From: a virus
Lineage: Duplodnaviria; Caudoviricetes
Strand: one strand, 5' to 3'
IMG/VR virus record: IMGVR_UViG_3300027956_000033
Span: 1-27,701 of that record
DNA length: 27,701 bases
Below the pieces are notes generated by a model, which saw only the letters and a program-made list of their open reading frames with translations, did no database searches and was not told the DNA's origin. A program made the position numbers and the translations under genes. This document shows, piece after piece, positions 1 through 27,688 of the stretch (its first letter is position 1; each line of letters starts with the position of its first letter).

Positions 1-2
1 TG

Positions 3-524
3 AGCGGCAACGTGCCCGAGGCGACGACGGCGCTAGGCGAGCCGCGCACGCCAGGGGCGACCGGTTTCGGCGCGCTGGTCGGTCGCTACGACATCGAGCG
101 CGACACGCCGACGCTCGAGGCGCTGCGGCTGGCCGACGTCAACGTGCCGCGCGAGACGCGCGTGCTGTCGACCGGTGGCGGCTACGGCGTGGAGCTCACC
201 GAGGCGGAGCGCGACACGCTGAAGCGCGCCCGCGGTCAGGCGATCATCGCGGAGGTCGCTAAGGAGCGGGCCCGACCGCGGACGGCGAGATCTGAGCGGG
301 TGCTGCGGACTGCCGATCCGGGATCGGCGGAGTACCGTGCGGCGCTCGAAGATTTTAACGCGGCGATGCAGGGGGCGGTCAGCGACGCCGCTCGATGGGC
401 GAACCAGGATTTCGAGAAGCAGCTTGGCAAGGCCGAGATCAAGCGTCGCGAAAAGCAGACCCGCGAGGTCGAACAGCGGTATCTCGGGACGCCGAGTCTG
501 CCAGTGGGGGAGCTCAATCCGTGA
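3..524 (+). CDS. 3' end of a probable large virion-associated protein (likely truncated by window edge)
   Basis: The frame of ORF 12..524 is open from position 3 with no upstream stop; helical, charged sequence; same strand as the following structural genes. Confidence 0.6.
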   Translation, partial: SGNVPEATTALGEPRTPGATGFGALVGRYDIERDTPTLEALRLADVNVPRETRVLSTGGGYGVELTEAERDTLKRARGQAIIAEVAKERARPRTARSERVLRTADPGSAEYRAALEDFNAAMQGAVSDAARWANQDFEKQLGKAEIKRREKQTREVEQRYLGTPSLPVGELNP

Positions 525-19902: not shown

Positions 19903-20555
19903 TGCCAATCCGCATGAACAAGCCGGGCGAGAGCTCGTTCGGCATCAACATCGAAGACACCTTCGACCCGAACGACGATCACACGGTCGAACTGGTCGAC
20001 ATGGACGAGTTCCAGGGTGTCAGCAAGATTGACGGCAAGCCGTACACCAGCATCGTCTGGAAGTTCGCCATCTACGACACCGACGGCATCGCGTTCACCA
20101 ACCTGATCGACGGTGGCGTGTTCGAGACGTGGCAGTTCTCGAGCCTGAGCCTGAGCGAGAAGTCGCAGGGTCGGGCGTGGGCGGCGGCGCTGCTCGGCAA
20201 GCCGTCGCTGACCGACGCTGAATGCGACGCGATCGCGGAGGCGTTCGACAGTGCGCTGGTCGGCAAGCAGGCGACGGCGTCCTGGAAGGTCGAGGACGTC
20301 AACGGCAACAAGCGGCTCAAGCTGGCGCTGCTGCGTCCGCTGCGCCGTCAACGTCCTGCTCCGCCGTCTACGGCACCGAAGCCGAAGCCTGCGCCGGAAG
20401 CGCCACCGGAATTCGTCACGCCGAATCCTCCGCCGCGGTCGATGCCGACGGCGAACGGCGCTCGAGAAACGGCAGCGGAGCGCCGTGCTCGGCTCCAGGC
20501 GGAGCTCGCGGCGATGCCCGAGGACGACGCCGATGCCGAACCCTTCAACGACTGA
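19902..20555 (+). CDS. Putative ssDNA-binding protein (OB-fold type), 217 aa
   Basis: SD AGGAG; beta-rich core, Pro-rich linker, acidic C-terminal tail DDADAEPFND; replication context. Confidence 0.6.
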   Translation: MPIRMNKPGESSFGINIEDTFDPNDDHTVELVDMDEFQGVSKIDGKPYTSIVWKFAIYDTDGIAFTNLIDGGVFETWQFSSLSLSEKSQGRAWAAALLGKPSLTDAECDAIAEAFDSALVGKQATASWKVEDVNGNKRLKLALLRPLRRQRPAPPSTAPKPKPAPEAPPEFVTPNPPPRSMPTANGARETAAERRARLQAELAAMPEDDADAEPFND

Positions 20556-21540
20556 GATCGTGCTGGCCGGGGAGACGGGAGTCTCCCTGGCTCAGCCAGA
20601 CCAGCGTGTCCTGTACCTGATCCAGGAGTTCGCGTCGGCGTGGAAACGCACGCTCGAGCTCTCGATCGACCTGGGCGAAGCCCTGATCGACCTGAAGGCT
20701 ACGCTGCCGCACGGTCAGTTCGGTCCCTGGCTCGAGCAGCACGCGCCGTTCACCGAGCGGCACGCGCGTCGGTTCATGGATCTGTGGGCAAATCGGACAT
20801 TAGTGTCCGAATTGCCGTCGGATACGGGCGTGACCGCAGCGATGCGGTGGGTTCAGGCGCAGCGTCGGACGCCGCGGCCTACGCCCGAGCATGAGCCCGA
20901 TATAGACGGCGTCGACGCAGAGGCCACCAGGGAGCCGCTGTTGCGGTTCTGGCTTCCTGGAGCCCCGACGCACGTCATCGTCAATCAGATGCTGCTGACG
21001 TTCTTCCCTGATGCCTCAACGGCGTTGGACGTGACTTATGGCTCCGGTAACTTCTGGAGTCAAACGACGCATCTCGCGGTCACCGGCCACGATCTGGACG
21101 AATACTGTGCGCCGGACGGTGTGATGGACTTCACCGATCTGAAGTACGACGACGCCAGCTTCGACGTGGTGCTGTTCGATCCGCCGCACATAGCCGACGG
21201 CGGAGACGACTCGGTGATGGCGACCAGGTTCAGCACGGTCGCGACGCAAACGGCGCTCGATGAGCTCATCCTGCAGGGCACGCGCGAGGCGTGGCGGGTG
21301 TGCGACAAGGGCATCATCGTCAAGGTGACGAACCACGTCCACGGTCGGCTCTTTCAGAACGAGGTCGACCTGGTAGCGGAGGCGCTCGGCTGGAACCAGC
21401 CGCTGTACGACCAGGTGCATCAGGTCCGCGACCATGCGTTCATCGATCCGTCCTGGGGCGAGCAGATGAGCGCGTACAACAACGGCTCGACGTTCCTGGT
21501 CTACCGTAAGGGATCGCAGATCCACGGCAGGAGGGGCTGA
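20533..21540 (+). CDS. DUF3102-like domain fused to an amino-DNA methyltransferase, 335 aa
   Basis: LGEALIDLKATLPHGQFGPWL...ARRFM (DUF3102-like); LDVTYGSGNFW (SAM-binding) and FDVVLFDPPH (DPPY-like). Confidence 0.8.
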   Translation: MPNPSTTEIVLAGETGVSLAQPDQRVLYLIQEFASAWKRTLELSIDLGEALIDLKATLPHGQFGPWLEQHAPFTERHARRFMDLWANRTLVSELPSDTGVTAAMRWVQAQRRTPRPTPEHEPDIDGVDAEATREPLLRFWLPGAPTHVIVNQMLLTFFPDASTALDVTYGSGNFWSQTTHLAVTGHDLDEYCAPDGVMDFTDLKYDDASFDVVLFDPPHIADGGDDSVMATRFSTVATQTALDELILQGTREAWRVCDKGIIVKVTNHVHGRLFQNEVDLVAEALGWNQPLYDQVHQVRDHAFIDPSWGEQMSAYNNGSTFLVYRKGSQIHGRRG

Positions 21541-22779: not shown

Positions 22780-22820
22780 AAACGCCGCCCCTGTTTCTTG
22801 ACCAACCAGGGCGGCGTTTT
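22780..22820 (+). terminator. GC-rich hairpin with T-tract; possible terminator/attenuator upstream of the replicase
   Basis: AAACGCCGCCC(22780-22790)/GGGCGGCGTTT(22809-22819)T. Confidence 0.55.
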
Positions 22821-22854: not shown

Positions 22855-25800
22855 ATGAATACTACTACGACCGTTGTGGTGTCGTTCTTCCGTAACGAGA
22901 CGGACGTTCGGCCCCAACCGCAAACGTTCACAATCGAAGAGCTTTTCGAGCTCCTGACGAAGCATCAGCCGCGGACGCATAAACGCCGCGGCATGTTGTG
23001 GTCGCCGTTCCTGTTCAACGGTGCGCGCAAGGGCGAGAACCTGATTGAGAGCACGCTGCTCGCCTTCGACATCGATGACGGCACGTCACCCGAGCAGGTG
23101 GAGGAATGGCTCGAGGGACGCAGCTACTTCCTGGCGTCGACGCACTCGAGCACGCCCGAGCACTGGAAGCTGCGCGTCGGGCTGGTCCTGACCGAGCCGA
23201 TCCCCGCGGCGGACTTCGCGAGCGTGTGGCATTCCGCGGTCGCGGAGCTCCTGCACGGCCACGTCGATCCGTCGACGCACGATCTGGCGCGCATGTTCTA
23301 CCTGCCGACGGCGCCACCAGGCGCGGAGCCATACGCCGAGATCGCCTGGGGCGAGCCGCTGGACTGGCGATCGTTGCCACGGTGGGAGCCGCCCGAGCGA
23401 CCAGCGTTGCCCGACCTGGACGGCATCGAGGGGCTGGACGCTGGTGTCGAGCGTCGACGGGCGAAGCCGATGCTTCAGAAGTGGTGCCTGGACGTAGCGA
23501 ACGCGACCCCAGGCGAGCGGCATGAAGCGATCCTGAGGCTCGGACGGGCCGCGGGCGGGCTGGTCGGGTCAGGCGCGCTGGCGTACGAAGAGGCGTATGC
23601 CGAGTTCCTGGACGCTGCGGAGGCGTGCGGCGAGGTCGCTGACCACGGTCTGCGGGACGTCGACCGCGCGATCCGTGGCGCGCTGCAATACGGCATGGAC
23701 GAACCCTGGACGCCGGCACAGTTGGGTGACAGCGACGACTGGCTGACGGCGCCGAAAATCAAGCTCACCGGATCATCTGTTCCTGTTCCGCCTATGGGGA
23801 TGGGAACAGGGAACAGATCGAGTGCTCGAGGGCAACCCCCGGAGGGGGTTGGAATTTTGGACCCCATCAAGTGGCGTTCCCACCGTCAGACCGTGGATCT
23901 GCTGCCGCCCGACATCGACTGGTTCATCGACGGCATCCTGGGCCGCGGGCTGATCACCGAGCTCGTCGCCAAGGTGAAGATGGGTAAGACGACCTTCATG
24001 CTGCAGGGCATCCGCGCCGGTATCGCCGGCGATGACGAATACTGCGGTCGCGCGGTACATGGCCCGCTGCGCGCGGCGTACGTCACCGAAGAGGGCTGGC
24101 AGACCTTCCAGATCGCGATGATGCGTTACGGGCTGAACGACCTGGTCGACAACGACGCGTTCTTCACGGTCTTCGATTTCGAGACGGAAGACGTCGACGC
24201 TAAGAAGCCGAACCTGCCGTTCGTCATCGACTCGCTGATCCGCCACGCAACCGAAGACAATGTCGACGTCGTCATCCTGGACACGCTGAGCATCATCGCC
24301 AGCCTGGACGAGGAAGACCACTCGGGGCGGGCCGCGGGCGTCATGGCGGAGGTACGGCGTCTGTCGACCGCAGGCTTCGCCGTCGGCATCCTGCGCCACA
24401 GTCGAAAGAGCGGCGGCGACGTGGGTGACGCTGGTCGCGGCTCGTCCGCGATCTCTGGCTACTGCGACATCCTGCTGCAGATCGAGCCGTTCAAGGGTGA
24501 CGAGGACGCGACCAGCGCGCGGGTGATGCGGACCAAGTCACGGCTCGGCGTGTACGAGCCGCTGATGCTCGAGTTCGACAAGGCGACCGAGCGGTATTCG
24601 AGCAACGGCGCGGTCCAGTCCAGCCAGGAGCGGCTCGAAGCCGCGGTAATGAAGGCGCTGGCCGACCTGAACGCGACCAGTGAAGAGCAGGGCAAGACGT
24701 CGCTGGAGGTCACGGCGAAGAGCGGCAAGCGCAAGCAGGCGGTGACCGACATGCTCAAGACGCTGGTTGCCGAAGGCAAGGTGGCGTCGGCGTTCCGCGG
24801 CAGAACGGTTATCTATTGGCTCAAGCTGGTCATTCACCTGACGCATGAGGCGGCGGAAGAATCTGTTCCCGGAACTGCGGAACAGCCGGAACAGGTTGTA
24901 CAGGAGCCGCCGCGAAACCCCCTTACGGGGGTTTCGGTTGAAACGCTATCTGTTCCCGAAAATCTTCTCCCGGAGGGAGAGAAACGGGAACAGATAACCA
25001 AGCGAAAGGCGCCGACGGCGGAGGCGATCGCCAAAGCCGCGGAAAAGAAGGCGGCGCTGGAGCTCGCGCGGCTCGAGGCGGCAGACGCCGCGGCGCCGAC
25101 GCTGGAGTACCTGACGGTGCTGACCGACCAGGATCTCGTCGCGGCGATCGCGCGGCTCAACACGGTCGCATGCGCGCTGGACACAGAGACGACGGGCTTG
25201 AACGCGAAGCGCGACAAGTTGCGGACGATCAACCTGTCCGACGGGCAGACGCATGTCGTCATCGACGCCTGGGGCATCACCGACTGGACGCTGCTGCAGT
25301 CCTACCTGGACCAGGTCGGCACGGTCAGCATGCACACGTACCTGTTCGACCTGGCGTTCCTGGATGTGATCGGCATCAGGGTTAATCCCGACAAGGTGTA
25401 TGACGTCCGCACCGCGGCAATGGTCCTGGAGTCGAAGGAAGACTGGACGGATTACCGTCTGCAGGGCATCGCCAAGCGTCACCTGGCCGAGCACGTCTCG
25501 AAGGCCGAGCAGAAGCGGGGGTGGGACGCGCCGGTGTTGCGCCACGCCAAGCTGGCGTACGCCGCGGAGGACGCGCGGGTGACGCATGCCGCGGCGATCG
25601 CCGTCGCATCCAAGCTCCAGCAGGACGCCGACGTCGACGGGCTGTGGACGTGCCTGGCGCTCGAGCGTGACGTCCAGGCAGCGACCTGGTGGCTTGCCTC
25701 CGCGGGAGCGCCCGCCGATCGCGACGTCATGCGCGAAGCCGTGGCGGAACAGGAGGCGAAGCTGGCCGAGCATCTCGAGATTCTGAATGCGACCGCTGGC

Positions 25801-26802
25801 GAAGCCACCGTCAACTGGCGCAGTCCGAAGCAGGTGCTGCCTATCCTGATCGAGCGTGGTCTGGATGTTGAGTCGACCAGTGAAGGGGCGCTGATGGATA
25901 CGGTGATGGGCACGGAGGCGCCGATCCCGCTGGTCAGTGCGCTGCTGAGTTACCGTTCGGCCAGCGCGTGCCTGGGCCTGCTACGCAGAGCGCAGAGCAG
26001 CATCCAGGACGATGGGCGGATCTATGCGTCGTTCAATCCGATCGGCGCGCAGACGGGCAGGACGTCCTGCTCCGACCCGAACCTGCAGAACCTGCCGCAC
26101 GATACCCGAGCTCGCGAGGCGATCCGCCCGCCGACGGGACGCGTCTTCGTCCGTGCCGACTACTCGCAACTGCAGCTTGTCATCGCGGCCTGGATCGCGC
26201 AGGACGCCGAGATGCTGAAGGTGCTCAACGACCCGCACGGCGACGTCCACCAGCGCACCGCGGAAGCGGTCGGCTGCACCAGGCAGCAGGCGAAGGCGGT
26301 CAATTTCGGGTTCCTGTTCGGCGCCGGCTCGGAGACGTTCCAGCGTGAGCAGCGGAAGAACGGCGTGTACCTGACCGAGCAGCAGGCGTGGCGGTATCGC
26401 GAGACGTTCATGCGGACGTACCGCGGCATCCGCTCCTGGCACAAGTCGCTGAGTGATTGGGGCACGGAGGAAGTGATCTACGATCCGTCGGGCTCTGGAC
26501 GTCGCCGTGCGGCAGTCTTCAGCAAGAACGTCAAGGCCAACACGCCCGTCCAGATGGTCGAAGCGCACGGTTTCAAGCGTGCCCTGCAGGTGCTCTACAA
26601 TAGCCGACATGAAGCACCGTCGGCGCGGCTCGTCATGATGGTTCACGATGAGCTCATCGCTGAGTGCGATGCCGACGACGTGGAGCGGACGCAGAAGTGG
26701 CTGTGCAAGGGCATGCTCGAGCCGATGCAGGCGCTGCTGCCAGGCGTCACCGTCCGTGTCGACGTCAAGGTGACCAGGAGCTACGCCGACAGTGACAAGT
26801 AA
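22855..26802 (+). CDS. polA: Primase - RecA-like helicase - 3'-5' exonuclease - family A DNA polymerase fusion, 1315 aa
   Basis: AEP-like FDIDDG/STHSS/DLARMFYLP; Walker A AKVKMGKT and Walker B VILDT; Exo I ALDTETTG, Exo II FDL, Exo III YAAEDA; PolA TGRTSCSDPNLQN, ADYSQLQL, RQQAKAVNFGFLFG, VHDE. Confidence 0.9.
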   Translation: MNTTTTVVVSFFRNETDVRPQPQTFTIEELFELLTKHQPRTHKRRGMLWSPFLFNGARKGENLIESTLLAFDIDDGTSPEQVEEWLEGRSYFLASTHSSTPEHWKLRVGLVLTEPIPAADFASVWHSAVAELLHGHVDPSTHDLARMFYLPTAPPGAEPYAEIAWGEPLDWRSLPRWEPPERPALPDLDGIEGLDAGVERRRAKPMLQKWCLDVANATPGERHEAILRLGRAAGGLVGSGALAYEEAYAEFLDAAEACGEVADHGLRDVDRAIRGALQYGMDEPWTPAQLGDSDDWLTAPKIKLTGSSVPVPPMGMGTGNRSSARGQPPEGVGILDPIKWRSHRQTVDLLPPDIDWFIDGILGRGLITELVAKVKMGKTTFMLQGIRAGIAGDDEYCGRAVHGPLRAAYVTEEGWQTFQIAMMRYGLNDLVDNDAFFTVFDFETEDVDAKKPNLPFVIDSLIRHATEDNVDVVILDTLSIIASLDEEDHSGRAAGVMAEVRRLSTAGFAVGILRHSRKSGGDVGDAGRGSSAISGYCDILLQIEPFKGDEDATSARVMRTKSRLGVYEPLMLEFDKATERYSSNGAVQSSQERLEAAVMKALADLNATSEEQGKTSLEVTAKSGKRKQAVTDMLKTLVAEGKVASAFRGRTVIYWLKLVIHLTHEAAEESVPGTAEQPEQVVQEPPRNPLTGVSVETLSVPENLLPEGEKREQITKRKAPTAEAIAKAAEKKAALELARLEAADAAAPTLEYLTVLTDQDLVAAIARLNTVACALDTETTGLNAKRDKLRTINLSDGQTHVVIDAWGITDWTLLQSYLDQVGTVSMHTYLFDLAFLDVIGIRVNPDKVYDVRTAAMVLESKEDWTDYRLQGIAKRHLAEHVSKAEQKRGWDAPVLRHAKLAYAAEDARVTHAAAIAVASKLQQDADVDGLWTCLALERDVQAATWWLASAGAPADRDVMREAVAEQEAKLAEHLEILNATAGEATVNWRSPKQVLPILIERGLDVESTSEGALMDTVMGTEAPIPLVSALLSYRSASACLGLLRRAQSSIQDDGRIYASFNPIGAQTGRTSCSDPNLQNLPHDTRAREAIRPPTGRVFVRADYSQLQLVIAAWIAQDAEMLKVLNDPHGDVHQRTAEAVGCTRQQAKAVNFGFLFGAGSETFQREQRKNGVYLTEQQAWRYRETFMRTYRGIRSWHKSLSDWGTEEVIYDPSGSGRRRAAVFSKNVKANTPVQMVEAHGFKRALQVLYNSRHEAPSARLVMMVHDELIAECDADDVERTQKWLCKGMLEPMQALLPGVTVRVDVKVTRSYADSDK
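23775..23850. repeat. Inverted-repeat cluster 1 (CTGTTCC/GGAACAG) in the primase-helicase linker
   Basis: ATCTGTTCCTGTTCC(23775-23789)/GGAACAGGGAACAGAT(23803-23818); AACCCCC-GGA-GGGGGTT(23834-23850). Confidence 0.75.
24861..24996. repeat. Inverted-repeat cluster 2 (CTGTTCC/GGAACAG) in the helicase-exonuclease linker
   Basis: ATCTGTTCCC 24861; GGAACAG 24879, 24888; CGAAACCCCC-TTAC-GGGGGTTTCG 24913-24936; TATCTGTTCCCG(24947-24958)/CGGGAACAGATA(24985-24996). Confidence 0.8.
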
Positions 26803-27688
26803 GCCAGCATCGCTGCGGGAGCCGCACTGGTCTGCCTCCAGGTTCATGCTCTTCGAGCAGTGCCCGAGGTTGTACAAAGACCGCTACATCGACGGCATCG
26901 CCACGGAACCGAGTCTGGCGATGCTGTTTGGATCAGCCGTTCACACTGCTCTGGAGGCACTGCACCAGGGGCAAAGGGGGACGTGTCTTACCGCTGCAAG
27001 CAGCGGCGAAGACCACTACCGCAGCGCCAGGGCGCTGTACGCAGAGCGGTTCGATGCGATGAACGCGCGGCTCGAAGAGCTCGGACTGTGCGCGCCGGCG
27101 TCGCTGTACGCCGAGGGTCTGCGGATGCTGAACCTGGTCGAAGACCTGAATCTGAATGCCGATGGTCGCAGCGAAGCTGAACGCTGGTTCACGCTGCCGA
27201 CCAAGTCGACGTGGGGTCTGCCGACGATCGGCGCGGTTGACCTGTGGTCGCCACCGTGGTCGGCGCATGGCGCGGTGGTGTGGGATTTCAAGACGACGGT
27301 CGGCGCCTGGGGCGCGGAGCGCGCGGCGCGCGAACGCTGGCAACCGATGCTGTACGCGTGGGCCTACAAGCGTGCCTATGACGTCATCCCGACGTTTCGT
27401 TACCTGGTCCTGAGCCGCGCTAGCGGAACGTCCCAAGTCTTCGACCGCGGCTGGTCGCAACGTGAGTGGCGGGAGGACTTCAGCGCGCTGCACTTCCAGG
27501 CCGAGGCGATTGCAGAAGCGATCGACCAGGGGCAGTTCGACTGTTCCCGAGGTCACGGAACGTGTCTCGAATGCGGCGAGCCGTACGGCCACGATCACGT
27601 CTGCGATGACGCGCCGCGGCCATCGAAAATCAGGCTGGTCAAGAAGCACGGTCAGACCTGGGTTCAACCTGCGCTGATCGAGGCGTAA
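26792..27688 (+). CDS. PD-(D/E)XK (RecB/Cas4-like) exonuclease, 298 aa
   Basis: WSASR....EQCP..Y..RY, FGSAVH.ALE, E...GAVD...WDFKT, Q...Y.WA, C-terminal Cys cluster. Confidence 0.85.
   Translation: MTSKPASLREPHWSASRFMLFEQCPRLYKDRYIDGIATEPSLAMLFGSAVHTALEALHQGQRGTCLTAASSGEDHYRSARALYAERFDAMNARLEELGLCAPASLYAEGLRMLNLVEDLNLNADGRSEAERWFTLPTKSTWGLPTIGAVDLWSPPWSAHGAVVWDFKTTVGAWGAERAARERWQPMLYAWAYKRAYDVIPTFRYLVLSRASGTSQVFDRGWSQREWREDFSALHFQAEAIAEAIDQGQFDCSRGHGTCLECGEPYGHDHVCDDAPRPSKIRLVKKHGQTWVQPALIEA

Follow-up and report, generated by a model that had tools for sequence, protein, structure and literature searches.

Can a replicative DNA polymerase of family A do without the steric-gate Glu and the O-helix Tyr, two residues that have been described as invariant in this family (PMC3715850)? 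The question is raised by a gene of an uncultured phage, which encodes Gln and Phe at the corresponding positions. The gene lies in a window of 27,701 nt (the whole stretch of DNA that was analysed), which together with L001 and L103 belongs to a complete phage genome (G001; 41,315 nt) carrying capsid, terminase and lysis genes. Its product is a fused replicase, organized as follows together with the adjacent gene:

22855..26802, + strand: fused replicase ORF, 1,315 aa from ATG (frame open from TTG at 22798), primase-like + helicase + 3'-5' exonuclease + PolA
22927..23364, + strand: N-terminal primase-like domain, aa about 25-170 (phrog_9765, E 4.5e-15; phrog_256, E 2.6e-08)
23905..24414, + strand: AAA_25 helicase-like ATPase domain, aa 351-520 (PF13481, E 1.2e-13)
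25114..25590, + strand: 3'-5' exonuclease with intact DxE, FD and YxxxD catalytic motifs (PF01612, E 2.9e-17)
25732..26787, + strand: family A polymerase domain (PF00476, E 9.1e-51)
26792..27688, + strand: adjacent PD-(D/E)XK exonuclease gene, a replication-module neighbour (PF12705, E 2.8e-18)

The N-terminal domain, which from its motifs we take to be of the AEP type, shares 56% identity with the N-terminus of the protein P0026. Among relatives, such fused replicases are mosaic in their primase and helicase parts (window 22855-24500; L106:4867-8835; L109:11772-16268; P0025-P0028). The window combines one primase type with AAA_25, the genome G002 has Prim-Pol with AAA_25, and the genome G003 has Prim-Pol with PriCT and DUF3987; P0026 joins the primase type of the window to DUF3987, yet its polymerase is only 35% identical. 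Elsewhere in the window, an ORF at positions 20251-21537 (true start probably downstream of the listed GTG) contains DUF3102 fused to a DNA methyltransferase-like domain, and a transglycosylase-like gene (PF06737; 21734-22219), presumably resembling resuscitation-promoting factors, resides within the replication module; G003 has such a gene too. Window positions 1-524 encode the C-terminus of a probable virion protein of 2,822 aa (L103:1176-9641), in which peptidase and endolysin-like domains lie close to the N-terminal end, and G003 has a 2,797-aa ORF in a similar place. No close relative was found in GTDB genomes or among cultured phage records, where all 2,641 matches were below 60% identity (24-26% for the 25 matches listed).

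Fold and catalytic motifs identify the enzyme as a family A replicase from the neighbourhood of the Aquificae/apicoplast-like PolAs. The polymerase model (pLDDT 96, from a 68-row alignment) has its best fold matches in the Aquifex pyrophilus PolA 8jrb and in Plasmodium apPol/PREX, which also match best in sequence, with TM values of 0.72-0.83 to 8jrb, apPol and Klenow entries and 21-24% identity over the fold. Since the gate Glu and the O-helix Tyr are conserved features of family A and not the basis of assignment to it, an enzyme with Gln and Phe in their place is classed as a family A variant. The features of Aquificae-like (Hot Spring) PolAs found here are (i) 8jrb and apPol as the nearest solved structures, (ii) Phe at B3, (iii) exonuclease motifs of the active type, and (iv) the lack of a 5'-3' exonuclease. 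A short exo+pol architecture, proofreading motifs and Phe762 are shared with the Aquificae-like/Hot Spring 1 PolAs (cluster 8; Czernecki 2023), and primase/helicase fusions are known in this group, according to the part of that classification that covers it (PMC10201439).

Residues were assigned from alignments to 8jrb and apPol, whose E, Y and G..AD occupy the same columns. E. coli numbers serve as labels; 705-766 and 881-883 follow a preliminary description of this DNA and published papers, and 668, 709, 712, 734 and 845-854 are in part our own assumption. The active site comprises the following elements:

26059..26061, + strand: Arg of the TGR motif (Arg668 equivalent, by alignment), canonical partner of the gate carboxylate (contact described in the relevant part of PMC6158600)
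26158..26160, + strand: intact catalytic Asp in motif A, at the Asp705 position
26170..26172, + strand: Leu at the Ile709 position, member of a set of linked changes
26173..26175, + strand: Gln at the steric gate (Glu710 equivalent)
26281..26319, + strand: motif B, with Arg754 (26281), Lys758 (26293) and Phe762 (26305) intact and Phe at the Tyr766 position (26317-26319)
26539..26568, + strand: helix Q (motif 6), with Asn845 and Gln849 kept, Met850 (26554), a new Glu852 (GAA 26560-26562) and His854 (26566)
26644..26652, + strand: motif C HDE, intact

Both substitutions reported in the preliminary description, Gln in motif A (DYSQLQLV; CAG 26173-26175) and Phe in motif B (RQQAKAVNFGFLFG, with NFGFLFG at its Phe; TTC 26317-26319), are encoded where it had placed them. 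Alignment likewise confirmed its statement that the catalytic Asp705, Arg754, Lys758, Phe762 and HDE equivalents are intact, and the same is true of Arg668 and of the motif-6 Asn and Gln. The unusual segment NTPVQMVEAH downstream of motif B, to which it had also drawn attention, proved relevant, as it carries on helix Q the tightest partner of Gln710, Glu852.

Sequencing or assembly error has a practically negligible chance of explaining the Gln and Phe. The 1,701-nt stretch coding for exonuclease and polymerase is identical in the records L001 and L023 (possibly one sample), and the Gln/Phe codons recur in separate read sets. Agreement here refers to the places where contigs cover the codons, with 28 lesser differences besides: contigs of run X1 (possibly the source sample) cover both codons and a contig of run X2 covers the Phe codon, in each case with no differing letter. 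Moreover, relatives ranging in identity from 90% to about 35% keep the residues while their codons change synonymously; in 17 sequences the Gln codon switches between CAG and CAA and the Glu852 codon between GAA and GAG, the residues being unchanged. Among 120 polymerase regions, Gln and Phe co-occur in all 23 of the closest (at least 59% identity), a point which the preliminary description had left to homologues to decide; four distant regions (about 37% identity) are also Gln/Phe, and one is His/Tyr. The dN/dS ratio of the palm and fingers is 0.10-0.24 in 10 of 10 pairs. The Gln710/Phe766 feature is thus real and under selection, as had been supposed from the single sequence. One relative (P0004/L004) shows odd changes in helix Q, maybe due to assembly error or decay, and retains Glu852.

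Coupling between positions was analysed in 264 PolAs, obtained by pooling the proteins of the 120-region search with the best 150 representatives (50% identity) from 1.84 billion proteins. Because these proteins were ranked by how closely they resemble the query, the counts at position 710 (Glu 217, Gln 42, His 4, Asp 1) do not give a family-wide frequency. An acidic residue occupies helix-Q position 852 in all 46 Gln/His710 proteins (44 Glu, two Asp; referred to below as swap proteins), versus three of the 217 Glu710 proteins, which mostly have Ala or Gly there; for the 150 representatives alone the figures are 23/23 and 1/127. Leu709 is found in 44 of the 46 swap proteins versus five of the 217, and Phe766, more loosely associated than the 852 acid, in 42/46 versus 22/217. 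By MI-APC, the 710/852 pair (Gln359-Glu488 in P0002 numbering) ranks 11th of 115,921 column pairs, and 6th of 108,345 with stricter weighting. As a held-out check, DNA was scanned for nothing but the helix-Q motif with Glu852; each of the three loci obtained also encodes Gln710 and Phe766 (two share the same motifs). In three of the four His710 proteins (P0028, P0205, P0234, P0224), which lie on separate branches, His710 is accompanied by Leu849, a pairing that again ties position 710 to helix Q.

The pairing of Gln with Phe emphasized in the preliminary description therefore stands insofar as both are present and co-occur, but the tightest partner of Gln710 is the acid at 852. Gln710/Phe766 was rejected as the primary pair: only about four of 21 independent pairs differing at 766 also differ at 710, and the MI z-score is 3.1 versus 7.6 for 710/852. 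The window's clade has the further changes Val712, Met850 and His854; the last two were rejected as necessary parts of the set, since Met/Ile850 is found in 35 and Asp854 is kept in 15 of the 46 swap proteins, with no independent-pair signal.

Several individual proteins deserve mention. Phe766 occurs alone, i.e. with Glu710, in a PolA group comprising L074, L077, L079, L089, L091, L098 and L100. Insertions are present in the TGR-PNLQ motif of P0217 and L049, that of P0217 scoring as an intein with an HNH domain. The exo+pol protein P0195, which is of the swap type, has an N6/N4 DNA methylase domain at its C-terminus, and P0074 is a full-length Pol I-type protein with Asp at the gate. Three double-glutamate proteins (Glu710 + Glu852) were found, P0216, P0067 and P0095, the latter two being full-length and of the Pol I type. 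Ten swap proteins of other lineages carry generic names or none, so that their phage origin is only putative.

Judging from trees built without ten trait columns, it is likely that the swap arose several times, although the exact count is soft. A FastTree of 208 rows, from which one fragment and 55 rows of the canonical Pol I type were omitted, requires eight changes of the trait. In six independent pairs on well-supported branches, the state at 710 is matched by the 852 acid in a mean of 6.0 pairs (sign test, median p 0.031) and by Phe766 in 4.9 (p 0.0625). A subset of 50 rows (18 swap, 32 Glu), picked after the FastTree result had been seen, gave eight changes in IQ-TREE under both LG+G4 and the C20 mixture, of which well-supported branches force only three; a single swap clade was rejected (AU p 0.0018 and p 0.00023). 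In the FastTree, neither of the double-glutamate proteins P0216 and P0067 is sister to a swap lineage (P0095 left out). A scenario in which the swap arose once and the fingers segment then spread through recombination was also considered; it is unsupported by trees of separate segments, which need 7-9 changes, though it is compatible with well-supported branches (for the motif A-C segment, the best tree has seven changes and the well-supported branches are compatible with one origin).

To our knowledge, every mutation of the gate Glu either abolishes its size and its charge at once or severely impairs catalysis. The gate carboxylate of pol theta is bonded to the O-helix Tyr, the motif-6 Gln and the TGR Arg, that of KlenTaq has a water molecule in common with Asn750 and Gln754, and in pol gamma the Arg contacts the gate Glu, as described in the pertinent parts of PMC6158600, PMC6125688 and PMC3241644, respectively. 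Klenow E710Q has a kpol of 0.23 versus 40 per s (about 170-fold slower) and a Kd of 320 versus 17 uM (PMC3715850), i.e. a loss in kpol/Kd of about 3,000-fold as computed from these published values. Y766F is near wild type, and the Glu-Tyr bond is of minor importance according to the same authors (PMC3715850). Since E710Q is slow in Klenow, there is one PolA copy per genome (in three of three genomes) and the gene is under purifying selection, the phage must have compensated for the change.

The enzyme is, in our judgement, fairly probably an active proofreading replicase that copies ordinary DNA, with Glu852 of helix Q predicted to supply the charge lost with the gate Glu. Gln710, which has the same size as Glu, would still pack under C2' and block the 2'-OH. 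Glu852, placed one turn after Gln849 on the same face of the helix, may take over the carboxylate hydrogen bonds to Arg668, Gln849 and Asn845. The hydroxyl of Tyr766 would become dispensable, because there is no carboxylate at 710 for it to bind, and this residue would usually drift to Phe. The likely route would lead through a double-glutamate intermediate of the kind seen in the three proteins mentioned above. The proximity of 852 and 710 is predicted from their covariation, from the geometry of an ideal helix and from published work on the residues around them; Glu852 comes three residues after Gln849 in the modelled helix (476-501), which would place it 60 degrees round on an ideal helix. 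The shorter Asp852 of two swap proteins and the His710 of four set a limit to this geometry, which is not identical in all of them.

The magnitude of the defect of Klenow E710Q, together with the Prim-Pol domain of relatives, could suggest instead that the PolA domain has lost much or all of its activity, genome replication being left to the fused primase-polymerase or to a polymerase of the host. We consider this very unlikely, given that Asp705, His734, Arg754, Lys758, Phe762 and HDE are present in 46/46 swap proteins, that dN/dS is well below 1, that the domain is modelled with the high pLDDT given above, and that the polymerase domain persists through free exchange of the N-terminal module.

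A different possibility is that the enzyme is compensated for replication but selected for altered behaviour, such as lower fidelity, extension of RNA or mixed primers, or tolerance of rNTPs or 2'-modified substrates. Klenow E710Q is a mutator (PMC3715850), repeated origin could mean advantage as well as ease, and the swap is over-represented in this group of PolAs, with no case among the canonical Pol I hits. Position 709 is also changed, and substitutions of its Taq equivalent, 614, relax sugar choice; the exchange of Ile for Leu is, however, conservative. Against such a role, the proofreading residues of the exonuclease are retained in all swap proteins covering them, and the K2 of Klenow E710Q on rUTP is 0.056, the wild-type value being 0.083 and that of E710A 0.16 (PMC3715850, Table 1). 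Nor is the swap tied to one primase, because it accompanies a variety of N-terminal modules and also occurs in proteins some 600 aa long showing only the exo and pol families. Altogether, selection for altered behaviour seems unlikely to us. The altered sugar selectivity proposed in the preliminary description thus finds no support, Gln being equal in size to Glu and Klenow E710Q having no preference for closing on rUTP (PMC3715850).

The same holds for the altered base selectivity proposed there, as no nucleotide-modification genes were found and restriction sites are avoided. PurZ/PurA (PF00709) was detected in none of the three genomes (97-100% complete; the positive control matched 14/14), nor was Thy1. 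Nucleotide-modification families were absent from the scanned ORFs (15, 27 and 66), except for one DNA methyltransferase-like ORF, most of these ORFs having no family. The 41,315 nt of G001 lack 10 of 40 six-base palindromes altogether, mostly ones that contain A, versus eight of 2,248 other hexamers; CGGCCG, for instance, occurs 0 times versus 35 expected. The corresponding values are 10/36 versus 6/2,346 for G002 and 3/35 versus 2/2,074 for G003. Such avoidance in G001 suggests a host with many type II systems. It also indicates ordinary DNA; the relevant part of a study of coliphages reports that those with hydroxymethylated DNA avoid 2.4% of sites, against 55.8% for those without (PMC6286503). 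A pocket adapted to a modified base, like that of the DpoZ polymerases of 2-aminoadenine phages, is for these reasons very unlikely, even though both DpoZ clades have Phe at 766 and many ORFs of these phages have no family; the DpoZ authors themselves, in the part of their paper concerned with this residue, doubt that Phe explains Z selectivity (PMC8599892). Specialization for RNA or unusual bases is therefore probably not the role of this enzyme.

Comparison with known systems sets the enzyme apart. Its nearest solved relatives, 8jrb and apPol, retain Glu710, Tyr766 and a small residue at 852, where it has Gln, Phe and Glu; E415 of apPol is a proven steric gate, according to the section of PMC12027338 dealing with it. 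The Klenow laboratory mutants E710Q and Y766F (PMC3715850) carry the same two substitutions singly, and the natural enzyme adds Glu852 and Leu709. DpoZ shares with it the Phe at the Tyr766 position (motif B4), but no gate change is reported in the part of PMC8599892 concerned, and the window phage lacks PurZ and avoids A-containing restriction sites. CCPol/TV-Pol, a primase-type PolA, resembles the window enzyme in belonging to a mobile element and in its link with a helicase; according to the corresponding part of PMC7581432, CCPol retains E710 and F762. Most of the exonuclease is missing from CCPol. In the window enzyme the exonuclease is intact and a separate primase domain is fused to it, so that the largely lost exonuclease and PolA-domain priming characteristic of CCPol/TV-Pol were not found here. 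The enzyme is neither a DpoZ nor a CCPol. The relevant part of the 2023 PolA classification notes Phe766 for DpoZ only and mentions no gate variant (PMC10201439). In the open-licence literature (the classic Klenow/Taq mutagenesis papers being outside this scope) we found no natural gate variant, no description of position 852 and no combination of Gln710, Phe766, Glu852 and Leu709.

A bolder generalization, which we regard as doubtful, is that phage PolAs have repeatedly split the steric job (Gln/His710) from the charge job (Glu/Asp852), giving proofreading enzymes with relaxed sugar or template selectivity. For annotation, the swap proteins are a warning that a phage PolA without the motif A Glu need not be dead or signal unusual DNA. 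If the compensated swap is true, the role of the carboxylate becomes testable, as geometry of the Arg668/Gln849 network versus exclusion of the 2'-OH, and Glu at position 852 is predicted to rescue Klenow E710Q. Such a rescue would free position 710 for the engineering of polymerases that accept modified sugars yet keep the activity usually lost. The swap would then represent a natural, repeatedly evolved second-site suppressor of the loss of the gate Glu.
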